Origin: a virus
Strand: one strand, 5' to 3'
Virus genome (UHGV): UHGV-1434900
Length of the DNA stretch: 8,535 nt
Shown here: piece by piece, positions 525-4,534 of the stretch
Position numbering within the stretch: position 1 is the stretch's first letter
Layout of the letters: the number at the start of each line of letters is the position of its first letter
The notes under the pieces: model-generated
Seen by the model: only the letters and a program-made list of their open reading frames with translations
Told to the model about the DNA's origin: nothing
Databases searched by the model: none
Position numbers and translations under genes: made by a program

Positions 525-800
525 CTATCTTTTTTGTTGAGTGTTATTTGACTGGGATTGAATTTTTGCCAATAGCGAACTTGCTTTCGATGTATTCAAT
601 CCATTACAAATCATTCTTGTAATCGGTTTTTTGTAAATTCGATGAACGATATTTTCAACTTCAGTGATGCTTTCATTGCCACTGAGTTTTTTTATCTCAT
701 TGAACATCTCCTCCAATTGTTCATTTGTTGGATGCCATTTGATTATATCTAATTCTTCCTCTAATGCTTTTTTAAAAAGGAAAACCTGAAAAGATAACAT
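525..800 (-). CDS. Hypothetical protein, 91 aa
   Basis: ORF with ATG at 800-798 preceded by AGGAAAG-type SD that lies in the last codons of the upstream ORF (coupling); AT-rich codon usage consistent with neighbours; no recognisable family. Confidence 0.5.
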   Translation of the reverse strand: MLSFQVFLFKKALEEELDIIKWHPTNEQLEEMFNEIKKLSGNESITEVENIVHRIYKKPITRMICNGLNTSKASSLLAKIQSQSNNTQQKR

Positions 801-801
801 A

Positions 802-1116
802 TTACTTTCCTTGTGTTGGTTTAGTAGTGGATTGTTGAGCTTTTTCTAAAAGCCTTTTTGCTTTAGATGTGTCCAAACCATCTTGGGCAAAGCCTTGTTG
901 CTTATCATTCTGTTTTTGTTCACTTTTTTTTGGCGTATTCATCAGTATATACTTTGACTCGTTTTGTTTATCTCGATGACTTACTTTTTGTTTAAGTTTT
1001 GCACAAACTAGAACGTGCAGTGTTGGTAATACTGCACGTTTGTACCATTCGTGGTACTTAATCCTTTTGTTTGGCAGACATGAGATCTTCTGCTGCATCT
1101 TTAGAGTAGTTATCAA
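802..1116 (-). CDS. Small lysine/glutamine-rich hypothetical protein; start uncertain (full ORF 104 aa; internal ATG at 942-940 would give 46 aa)
   Basis: ORF ends 1 nt before the next ORF start; its C-terminal tail (GLDTSKAKRLLEKAQQ) resembles the tail of the 525-800 product (GLNTSKASSLLAKIQ), with matching DNA similarity. The 5' part overlaps the 1058-1240 gene and a palindrome, so the long form is doubtful. Confidence 0.3.
   Translation of the reverse strand: MITTLKMQQKISCLPNKRIKYHEWYKRAVLPTLHVLVCAKLKQKVSHRDKQNESKYILMNTPKKSEQKQNDKQQGFAQDGLDTSKAKRLLEKAQQSTTKPTQGK
1012..1040. promoter_or_regulatory. Perfect 10-bp inverted repeat (AACGTGCAGT / ACTGCACGTT) with 9-nt spacer; operator or attenuator/terminator hairpin
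   Basis: Read directly from sequence; lies just downstream of the RHH-like gene on the - strand; no adjacent U-run, so not a classical intrinsic terminator. Confidence 0.35.
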
Positions 1117-1240
1117 TCAGATAACCTAAAATCTCTGTCCATGTAATTGTTTTTCCTAGTTTTACACTGGCATTTATAGCCAGTCGTTCTAGTTTCATTT
1201 TTCTTTCTTCCGTCACGTTATAAGTCGTGCGCTTTGCCAT
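1058..1240 (-). CDS. Small ribbon-helix-helix-like DNA-binding protein (CopG/ParD/Arc-type), 60 aa; candidate regulator or antitoxin
   Basis: MAKRTTYNVTEERKMKLERLAINASVKLGKTITWTEILGYLIDNY fits the beta-strand / helix / G-x-T turn / helix pattern of RHH proteins; divergently oriented to gII. Confidence 0.5.
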   Translation of the reverse strand: MAKRTTYNVTEERKMKLERLAINASVKLGKTITWTEILGYLIDNYSKDAAEDLMSAKQKD

Positions 1241-3246: not shown

Positions 3247-3270
3247 AGGGGCACTCGTTGCCCCTTTATT
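3247..3270 (+). terminator. Rho-independent terminator after gVIII (AGGGGC-loop-GCCCCT followed by TTTATT)
   Basis: GC stem plus T-rich tail read from sequence; same position as the central terminator of Ff phage. Confidence 0.7.
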
Positions 3271-3283
3271 AAAGCGGGTTACT

Positions 3284-4534
3284 ATGAAAAGGAAAATATT
3301 AATTCTTTCCGCTGTCCTCATTTCTCCTTTTTCACATGCTGAGTCATGGGAAAGCATTACTAAATCCACTTATCAAAGCTCTGCCTACGCTGAAAGTAAG
3401 CAAATAACCAATCAGGATGGCTCTAAGTCAACGGTTTACTATATTGATGCTGCTATGCAGGCCTCCGCTTGTCAGGGTGCTAAATCCAGTGCTCAGAGTG
3501 TATTTACTCAGGTTAAACCAACTTATGAGGGTATCTGGCCTGATTCTGAATTCCGTCTTGTTTTTACTGGTGATTGTACTTACAGCGATTCACCAGGGCA
3601 GAAGGATAAATATTGGTCTTTAACGGCTTATATTGTTGGTGATATTCAGCGTTCTGTTCCTGATGAAAAACCTACTGACCCGACACCAGAAGAAATTTGT
3701 GAAGCGAAGCCGCCAGAAGAAGGTGTATTTAATAATGTTGATTCATATGATGGTGGTCGTTATATCTACTATAACGGCTGTGAATATGAGGCTACTGGTG
3801 TCATTGTTTGTCAGGGTGATGGTACTGTTTGCGCTGCAACATGGAAGCCTACAGGTACTGTAGCTGACCCCTCTGATAAACCCTCAACCCCCCAAAATGG
3901 TGGTGGTGAGTCTGGCGGTGGTGAGTCTGGCGGTGGTGAGTCCGGTGGCGGTAGTTCTGGCGGTGGTGAGTCCGGTGGCGGTAGTTCTGGCGGTGGCTTT
4001 AGTGGTTCCAGTCTTTCTAAAGGTGATATTCAGTCTGCTATCGAAGGTGCTTCACCCAAAATAGCCAGCGATATTCATGATAAATTAACGGAGAAAGACA
4101 CTTCATCAGATGATAAAAAAAATGCCGATGAACAAACTAGGAATAATATAAATCGTCTTGACGATTCCATTAACAATCTTACGCGGGGGGCTGGCCGTTT
4201 TGCTGACCCTTCAGGTGGTGATTCTCGTTATGGAAAGGGCGACTCTGAATTAGATGGCGCTTCTACTTTGGCTGATTCTGAATTGGGAATTGAAAAGGAT
4301 TCTCACGGTGCTTTATGGGAAGCATTTTTAAATAAAGGTGCTATGCTGCCTAATTTACCCAATGGTAACGGCTGCTCTGATTTTATTATTTTTCCCGGAG
4401 AGGTTTATCAGATTGATATTGGTTGCGATAAATTACTGACTATTAAAGATGTTCTTTCATGGGTTTTTTATTGCCTTACGTTCTGGTATGTCTTTACTTC
4501 TTTAACTTCATTGCTTCGCAAAGGGGGTGAGTGA
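3284..4534 (+). CDS. gIII: Gene III adsorption/minor coat protein (416 aa incl. signal peptide)
   Basis: Signal peptide [19 protein letters not shown]; internal Ff N1-like TolA-binding motif [33 protein letters not shown] (vs Ff RYANYEGCLWNATGVVVCTGDETQCYGTWVPIG); Gly/Ser/Glu linker; C-terminal anchor [17 protein letters not shown]. The ORF-track start at 3140 overlaps gVIII and the terminator and is rejected. Confidence 0.9.
3898..3993 (+). repeat. Coding tandem repeat for the gIII glycine-rich linker (15-bp unit x2 at 3901-3930; perfect 30-bp unit x2 at 3931-3990)
   Basis: Directly visible: ggtggtgagtctggc x2, then ggtggtgagtccggtggcggtagttctggc x2, giving [10 protein letters not shown]...GGGSS. 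Confidence 0.85.

Follow-up and report, generated by a model that had tools for sequence, protein, structure and literature searches.

Genomic context of the gene III locus

The 8535-bp stretch of DNA analyzed here (hereafter the window) carries the genes of a filamentous phage in the order gII, gV, gVII, gVIII, gIII, gVI, gI (Zot-like) and gIV (secretin), which the map of open reading frames and the RefSeq annotation together identify as the order of the Ff phages and IKe. Gene III lies between gVIII and gVI, the three products being annotated in RefSeq as the major coat protein, the attachment protein and a DUF5455 protein (gVI), and its stop codon overlaps the start of gVI (ATGA). Two small ORFs are found 3' of gIV and several reverse-strand ORFs upstream of gII. 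A scan for promoters and terminators around gIII recovered nothing relevant; a GC-rich hairpin between gVIII and gIII has a folding energy of -12.5 kcal/mol, with a z-score of only -1.6.

Escherichia coli 85.0412, isolated from human urine, has a chromosomal stretch 100% identical to the window, as do three further complete genomes; in one 100%-identical genome, CP122448, the gene III product is the RefSeq protein WP_033548378.1, with the same coordinates. In the source genome the prophage is present as two head-to-tail copies with a period of 8287 bp, directly after hipBA, and the window contains a perfect 28-bp E. coli dif site at positions 8011-8038, followed by a truncated LysR gene. Thus, the window comprises the second copy of a tandem prophage integrated at dif, plus its right junction.

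This arrangement fits the UPΦ phages (Shapiro & Putonti 2020, Virus Evol 6:veaa030; PMC7307601), which have been described as prophages occupying dif in tandem in urinary E. coli, Salmonella, Citrobacter, Klebsiella and Y. enterocolitica. Their structural genes are closest to those of IKe and I2-2, their gII and gV are more than 85% identical to those of YpfΦ with the other genes being dissimilar, and they carry two extra ORFs (h1 and h2) between gIV and dif as well as reverse ORFs after dif (PMC7307601). In the window, the ORFs at 7313-7621 and 7739-7972 after gIV and the reverse ORFs at 525-1240 match h1, h2 and the reverse ORFs in position, the comparison being one of placement only. When set against the YpfΦ locus of Y. 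pestis, the window products pII and pV are 85% and 93% identical, respectively, and pIV only 27%, while pIII, pVIII, pVI and pI have no detectable similarity in that locus; this likeness limited to pII and pV is the mosaic described for UPΦ901 (PMC7307601). Identity with CUS-1/YpfΦ, which the dif site and the neighboring hipBA had suggested, is ruled out, as the resemblance is confined to pII and pV and the Y. pestis locus holds nothing resembling this gIII. A megablast search with the whole window against the phage collection, in which UPΦ has no phage record, recovered only short gIV matches to IKe and PEar.

Domain architecture of the attachment protein

Gene III encodes a g3p of 416 residues, the parts of which are collected in Table 1. 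Over its length it is 53-55% identical to the g3p of IKe, I2-2 and PEar in tblastn searches, the best match among characterized phages being I2-2 (55%), followed by IKe (53%), and it shares an MKRKI... leader with the IKe precursor.

Table 1. Gene III of the window, the predicted parts of its product and the repeat array encoding the linker, with window coordinates
Feature	Position	Strand	Basis
Gene III, g3p attachment protein, 416 aa + stop	3284-4534	+	ORF, translation, RefSeq
Signal peptide (putative cleavage site), residues 1-19	3284-3340	+	Alignment to 4EO0 pairs residue 20 with residue 2 of the chain
N-terminal receptor-binding domain (by homology), residues 20-128, 109 aa	3341-3667	+	4EO0, PF21443, AF2 model, Foldseek
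Pro/Glu-rich hinge KPTDPTPE, residues 129-136	3668-3691	+	Between the 4EO0 and M13-N1 matches; pLDDT dips to 82-84
TolA-binding domain (by homology), Ff-N1-like, residues 137-195	3692-3868	+	4EO1, M13/fd N1, PF05357, Foldseek
Flexible linker, residues 196-243: Pro/Ser stretch, Gly/Ser/Glu part from (GGGES)3 on, then FSGSS	3869-4012	+	Codon translation; alignment
Tandem-repeat array encoding the linker, 99 bp	3899-3997	+	Tandem Repeats Finder and sequence
C-terminal domain, residues 244-416	4013-4531	+	Alignment with M13 g3p in the virion structure 8b3o
Hydrophobic anchor, residues 390-411	4451-4516	+	Within the C-terminal domain

The two domains that follow the leader were recovered both by sequence searches and by structure prediction. 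In a phmmer search against solved structures, the first matches 4EO0, the pilus-binding domain of IKe g3p (E=1.3e-26), and its residues 22-125 match PF21443, the G3P pilus-binding domain family (E=5.6e-26; 91 bits against a cut-off of 27). Residues 130-195 match the IKe TolA-binding domain, 4EO1 (E=4e-25); the N1 domains of M13 and fd are matched as well, starting at residue 137 (8b3o, 2g3p, 1g3p and 1tol; E=1e-11 to 1e-24), and PF05357 is found at 135-176 (26 bits against a cut-off of 20.8). A model of residues 20-199, built with AF2 on an alignment with 39 homologs, displays two separate domains with a mean pLDDT of 93; its pTM of 0.58 fits two well-folded domains that lack a fixed mutual orientation. 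The first domain is predicted to consist of beta-strands packed on a 29-residue helix, and Foldseek searches against the PDB align it with 4EO0 over 106 columns (target-normalized TM 0.95, rmsd 1.2 Å, 47% identity). The second aligns with 4EO1 (TM 0.90, 71% identity), its next matches being the N1 structures of M13/fd and If1. Cys63 and Cys98 of the first domain are conserved in the alignment with IKe, and the four cysteines of the N1-like domain (139, 166, 176 and 183) are invariant or nearly so across 40 homologs.

These results bear on the possibility that the N-terminal 120 residues are merely a diverged or duplicated N1, in which case there would be no separate receptor-binding domain. 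The region matches 4EO0 and PF21443 only, and not PF05357; its predicted fold is that of 4EO0, Foldseek against the PDB aligned no N1 structure with residues 20-128, and a match of the window g3p to the N2 domain of fd (9g8e) was not significant (E=0.7). With the structure, Pfam and Foldseek searches all speaking against it, we consider a divergent N1 at this position to be ruled out for practical purposes. The same data dispose of an Ff-type protein with the order N1-G1-N2-G2-CT, as N1 homology begins only at residue 137, the N2 match is not significant and there is a single Gly-rich stretch, at residues 206-238.

A first-pass annotation of this DNA, prepared from the sequence alone, had proposed a distinct domain ahead of the N1 motif, an order that departs from the N1-first arrangement of M13 and resembles the swapped arrangement of IKe, and a single Gly/Ser/Glu linker before the C-terminal anchor. 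Both the alignment and the structure prediction that it had called for bear this out, with a 4EO0-like domain of the IKe pilus-binding fold preceding a 4EO1-like, Ff-N1-like domain. Its boundaries require revision: the N1-like domain does follow the N-terminal region, but starts at about residue 137 instead of 150 (the motif having been placed at about 150-185), and the Pro/Glu-rich linker in front of it exists only as a hinge of about eight residues. The stretch that had been counted as linker belongs to the N1-like domain, where it aligns with 'SCLAKPHTEN' of M13.

Past the N1-like domain, M13 g3p (8b3o) can be aligned over its linker and C-terminal domain with residues 196-413, and the linker of the window protein also aligns with the Gly-rich regions of both IKe and M13. 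The C-terminal domain is the best-conserved part of the protein among relatives, residues 331-416 being 61-63% identical to IKe and I2-2. Taken together, we are confident that this is a filamentous prophage of the UPΦ type, inserted in tandem at dif of E. coli, whose gene III specifies an attachment protein of the IKe type. Neither half of this description is new in itself: the IKe-type architecture is available as solved structures and its N-terminal domain is represented by a family in Pfam, and the repeat polymorphism considered below has been published for this phage group (PMC7307601).

The repeat array and its variation among relatives

The Gly-rich part of the linker is encoded by an array that reads GGT, two perfect copies of the 15-bp unit GGTGGTGAGTCTGGC (3902-3931), two perfect copies of the 30-bp unit GGTGGTGAGTCCGGTGGCGGTAGTTCTGGC (3932-3991) and GGTGGC. 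Tandem Repeats Finder scores it at 154 with period 30 and at 117 with period 15, and a perfect 30-bp tandem duplication in 8.5 kb is far beyond chance. The same allele is present in four independent complete genomes and the array is thus not a sequencing artifact.

For a 1561-bp query around gIII, 52 complete E. coli genomes gave matches covering at least 80% of the query. Approximately 47 records reach 96.6% identity or more, and in these the matched span takes 21 different lengths, from 1528 to 1696 bp. Arrays extracted between conserved anchors from eight related loci range from 69 to 234 bp and differ by whole units, and at every clean locus inspected the change in array length equals the change in overall length exactly and is in frame. 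The 30-bp unit, present twice in the window (85.0412), occurs three times in BH100 substr. MG2014, four times in both BH100N substr. MG2017 and FDAARGOS_1257, and six times in HB37; the 15-bp unit is found two or three times in near-identical E. coli prophages, and those changes that were traced to single units measured 15 or 30 bp. Arrays in the more distant lineages span 69-192 bp and have GGSS among their units. Certain alleles recur in unrelated strains, the window allele in four genomes and a span longer by 30 bp in 12. Tandem prophage copies inside one genome have identical arrays. At the protein level, the exact window sequence is recorded from 309 contigs, and its 90%-identity cluster holds 682 member sequences of 401-426 residues, with a neighboring cluster reaching 488; at least 15 linker alleles were counted among the 80 cluster members that were read.

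The published record is of the same kind: UPΦ isolates differ by one 'GGGES' repeat in g3p, and 95 protein variants of gene III, distinguished mostly by repeat number, were found in 229 genomes (PMC7307601). The expectation in the first-pass annotation that the repeats could vary linker length is borne out by its own proposed comparison of related prophages, where whole units are gained or lost in frame. Its array of perfect 15-bp and 30-bp repeats was correctly recognized as such, with the limits shifting from 3898-3993 to those in Table 1.

The units are perfectly identical to each other in the window lineage, as against the synonymous differences that separate units in the short-array lineages, a distinction suggesting that slippage or unequal recombination has expanded the array recently. 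The array lengths are multiples of 3 bp and the frame is intact in every clean assembly, the sole out-of-frame copy being in the error-rich assembly of EC5502; this is accordingly a length polymorphism and not an on/off switch, and a phase-variable contingency locus was rejected on these grounds. EC5502, a long-read genome in which the gIII query finds 15 places in one chromosome, many of them frameshifted copies, was also set aside as evidence on repeat number between tandem copies.

Two other accounts of the variation have to be weighed against the view that the array simply expands and contracts with little consequence. One is that the differences are produced by the assembly of a repeat lying inside a tandemly duplicated prophage. 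There is some reason for concern, since database proteins are often broken inside the array, where draft contigs end, the EC5502 assembly contains many frameshifted copies, and the difference between the BH100 substrains could be one of assembly; individual counts from draft assemblies hence need care and some of the differences could be errors. As an explanation of the variation at large it is nevertheless very improbable: lengths differ by exact whole units across many independent complete genomes, identical alleles turn up in strains that are not related, the array accounts exactly for the change in length at each locus inspected, and the polymorphism has been independently reported for laboratory isolates (PMC7307601). 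The other account makes repeat number a hypermutable tuning knob, selected through infectivity, host range or immune recognition. It could draw on gene III being the most variable UPΦ gene, mostly in repeat number (PMC7307601), on the very recent expansion implied by the identical units of the window lineage, and on the two substrains of one isolate (BH100 MG2014 and BH100N MG2017), which differ by one 30-bp unit. We nonetheless regard such adaptive tuning as unlikely. High variability is the expected neutral outcome for a slippage-prone array, units that are all multiples of 3 bp permit no on/off switching, the copies within a genome are identical, and a naturally longer Gly-rich region in IKe is summarized as being without selective advantage (Bruno & Bradbury 1997, as cited in PMC7307601). 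Thus, with the linker of IKe as a guide, the length polymorphism among near-identical phages is most likely neutral or nearly so.

A predicted infection route

The architecture and its counterparts in IKe lead to the proposal of the following route. Five copies of g3p would sit at the virion tip, held there by the C-terminal domain, which is predicted both to cap the virion and to insert into the inner membrane. The N-terminal domain would capture the primary receptor, by homology to IKe most likely the tip of a retractile conjugative pilus, and the independently folded N1-like second domain would then bind the C-terminal domain of TolA in the periplasm, again as suggested by IKe. The single Gly/Ser/Glu linker may tether both N-terminal domains to the C-terminal domain, giving them reach and flexibility, with its 15-bp and 30-bp units probably being gained and lost whole and in frame by replication slippage or unequal recombination. 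We infer the pilus and TolA binding of the window g3p from its relatives; likewise, we infer the slippage mechanism from the identity of the repeat units, and the neutrality of linker length by way of IKe.

Receptor specificity

The two N-terminal domains evolve very differently. The first domain of the window g3p has only about 50% identity to its IKe and I2-2 counterparts (47-51%), which are 91% identical to each other, and its receptor may accordingly differ from theirs. Across the wider family at least 13 types of it can be told apart, which are 10-50% identical to one another, as against 45-83% for the TolA-binding domain; in one example, the IKe type versus cluster 3, identity is 27% in the first domain and 83% in the second. 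To judge from sequence, a diverged N-terminal domain next to a conserved TolA-binding domain is the probable signature of a host-range module that is either fast-evolving or exchanged.

Whether the UPΦ version has acquired a new specificity, recognizing with the same fold something other than N or I2 pili, is a refinement of the preferred reading of the locus and not a departure from it; the candidates would be another type of conjugative pilus or a chromosomally encoded structure. The divergence from IKe and I2-2, which contrasts with the closeness of those two, and the multiplicity of types beside a conserved TolA-binding domain are what is expected of a specificity module. In addition, UPΦ901 gave neither plaques nor integration on the IncI host JE-1, the standard host of I2-2, or on three IncI-bearing urinary strains (PMC7307601). 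The plasmids p1 and p2 of the source strain carry IncFII-type replicons, and no IncN or IncI2 plasmid was seen in the first 50 kb of each; these are in line with a different receptor, but we draw no conclusion from them, as a single strain was involved and a plasmid that made infection possible may since have been lost from the lysogen. On the other side, the failed infections may reflect low titer or superinfection immunity, every laboratory isolate carrying UPΦ901 had an IncI plasmid (PMC7307601), and 50% identity with a fold matching at TM 0.95 does not alone imply a changed ligand. On this evidence, the new specificity that the first-pass annotation had raised as a possibility is one that we put somewhat below even odds. 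A bolder version, in which the UPΦ domain, as one among 13 or more strongly diverged forms of the IKe fold, each joined to a conserved TolA-binding module, binds a non-N/I2 receptor and linker length in addition modulates the efficiency of infection, appears rather doubtful as a whole; if true, a receptor of this kind would explain both the wide spread of these phages (ExPEC, Salmonella, Citrobacter and Yersinia) and their failure on IncI hosts.

Significance

As an ordinary member of a described prophage group, the window prophage matters little beyond the correct annotation of its gene III. The UPΦ phages are, all the same, common in uropathogenic E. coli and Salmonella, and the contrast between a fast-evolving N-terminal domain and a conserved TolA-binding domain marks the former as the likely determinant of their host range. 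Residues 20-128 form a well-defined and confidently modeled module that could be expressed to seek the UPΦ receptor. There is also a practical consequence for databases: many g3p entries are partial sequences whose first or last residue falls within the array, as this is where draft contigs break, and the array both disrupts short-read assemblies and inflates the count of g3p 'variants' and partial proteins.

Comparison with known filamentous phages

The closest published counterpart is UPΦ901 and the UPΦ group as a whole. The window prophage is likewise arranged in tandem at dif, with IKe/I2-2-like structural genes, YpfΦ-like gII and gV and a GGGES-polymorphic g3p; we found no difference between it and UPΦ901, the likeness being drawn from the published description of the latter. 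The two-domain IKe-type architecture of g3p is not spelled out in that description (PMC7307601). With YpfΦ and CUS-1, of Y. pestis and E. coli K1, the window prophage has tandem integration at dif in common, and for them, too, the receptor is described as unknown (PMC4266046).

The window g3p shares with that of the Lineavirus IKe the complete order of parts, namely a signal peptide, a pilus-binding domain, a short hinge, a TolA-binding domain, one Gly-rich linker and the C-terminal anchor, as well as both folds, the conserved cysteines and the position of the gene. The N-terminal domains are about 50% identical, the TolA-binding domains 74% and the C-terminal parts 42-61%. The IKe domain structures 4EO0 and 4EO1 were released in the PDB in 2012; they are reportedly the work of Jakob et al. 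of that year, and the domain order of IKe has been known since then. The differences are that the window linker is shorter and built of units other than the GGDT/GGGST of IKe, and that the window phage is temperate, with integration at dif, IKe being a non-integrating phage. The g3p of the IncI2-specific Lineavirus I2-2 has the same architecture; its N-terminal domain is the one that stands at 51% identity to the window and 91% to IKe, and it too is from a non-integrating phage.

In the Ff phages (M13, fd and f1), g3p begins with N1, followed by the linker G1, the F-pilus-binding N2 and the linker G2. Between these proteins and the window g3p there is a homologous N1 (45-48% identity in structural alignment), a homologous C-terminal domain and the use of Gly/Ser/Glu linkers encoded by repeats. 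In contrast to the Ff order, the window g3p places an unrelated receptor-binding domain ahead of N1, dispenses with N2 and has one Gly-rich linker.

Integration site and the variable accessory module

In the source genome, E. coli 85.0412, the prophage is present as a tandem dimer with a period of 8287 bp, which adjoins hipBA; its right end is marked by a perfect dif site, beyond which lies a truncated LysR gene (see table). The gIII query matched 15 places in the chromosome of E. coli EC5502 (L002, NZ_CP092647.1). The 41.6-kb stretch fetched from this chromosome contains four copies of the prophage, in which many genes are frameshifted; the stretch is either a tandem array of very large size or the product of assembling noisy long reads.

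The region between dif and gII is occupied by a reverse-strand accessory module that varies among otherwise similar prophages. In those other than the window, it contains either different hypothetical ORFs, whose frameshifted homologues in EC5502 are annotated as an ECs_2282-family zinc-binding protein, or a toxin of the death-on-curing (Doc) family.

Coordinates of the prophage end, the accessory modules and the gVIII-gIII hairpin
Feature	Location	Strand	Description
Accessory module	window 525-1240	-	small hypothetical ORFs
Accessory module, related locus	L007 6625-8101		
Accessory module, related locus	L008 7032-8101		
Accessory module, Salmonella record	L009 2138-3207		
Hairpin between gVIII and gIII	window 3247-3268		GC-rich; AGGGGCA-CUCGU-UGCCCCU, then UUAUU
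E. coli dif site	window 8011-8038		perfect, 28 bp; GGTGCGCATAATGTATATTATGTTAAAT; right end of prophage
LysR gene	window 8226-8516	-	truncated; beyond dif

Occurrence in other records

UPΦ-type elements, i.e. filamentous prophages of the dif-associated E. coli group, were also encountered in other records. A contig assigned to a Saccharibacteria MAG labelled 'Candidatus Nanosynbacter sp.' (L012, JARKOR010000214.1) carries a UPΦ prophage at 7001-13527, each protein of which is 95-100% identical to that of the window; the contig is almost certainly a binning contaminant of enterobacterial origin. A circular Salmonella enterica 'plasmid' record of 7938 bp (L009, NZ_CP140410.1) comprises a UPΦ-type phage gene set, in which gIX is left without annotation and the gIII region shares 98.5% identity with the window; it is most likely the phage in its replicative or episomal state.

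As for the plasmids of the source strain, the first 50 kb of p1 and of p2 (L010, L011) each encode an IncFII RepA, and neither an IncN nor an IncI2 plasmid was detected in these stretches; thus, the lysogen is without obvious carriage of the pilus type used by IKe or I2-2.

Variant and partial forms of g3p

The linker arrays of two substrains of the E. coli isolate BH100 are separated by exactly one 30-bp unit, with four copies in BH100N substr. MG2017 (L005, array 960-1133) and three in BH100 substr. MG2014 (L006, array 960-1103), a difference reflecting either change during laboratory passage or assembly. Many g3p entries in databases, such as the cluster members P0078, P0080, P0082-P0086, P0088 and P0095, are fragments that start or end within the GGGES array. 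This repeat is a breakpoint of short-read contigs, and the count of partial 'attachment proteins' in databases is consequently inflated.

A 508-aa protein from an E. coli TPA assembly (P0063) opens with the signal peptide and N-domain of a g3p, at 100% identity to those of the window, and runs on as a secretin (PF03958/PF00263). It is either a gIII-gIV fusion generated by deletion or a misassembly. An odd similarity between pIV and pIII is mentioned in the paper on phage PEar.

The gVIII-gIII intergenic hairpin

The terminator scan did not flag the hairpin preceding gIII, which has a folding energy of -12.5 kcal/mol and a z-score of only -1.6. In the Ff phages, a terminator is located between gVIII and gIII.
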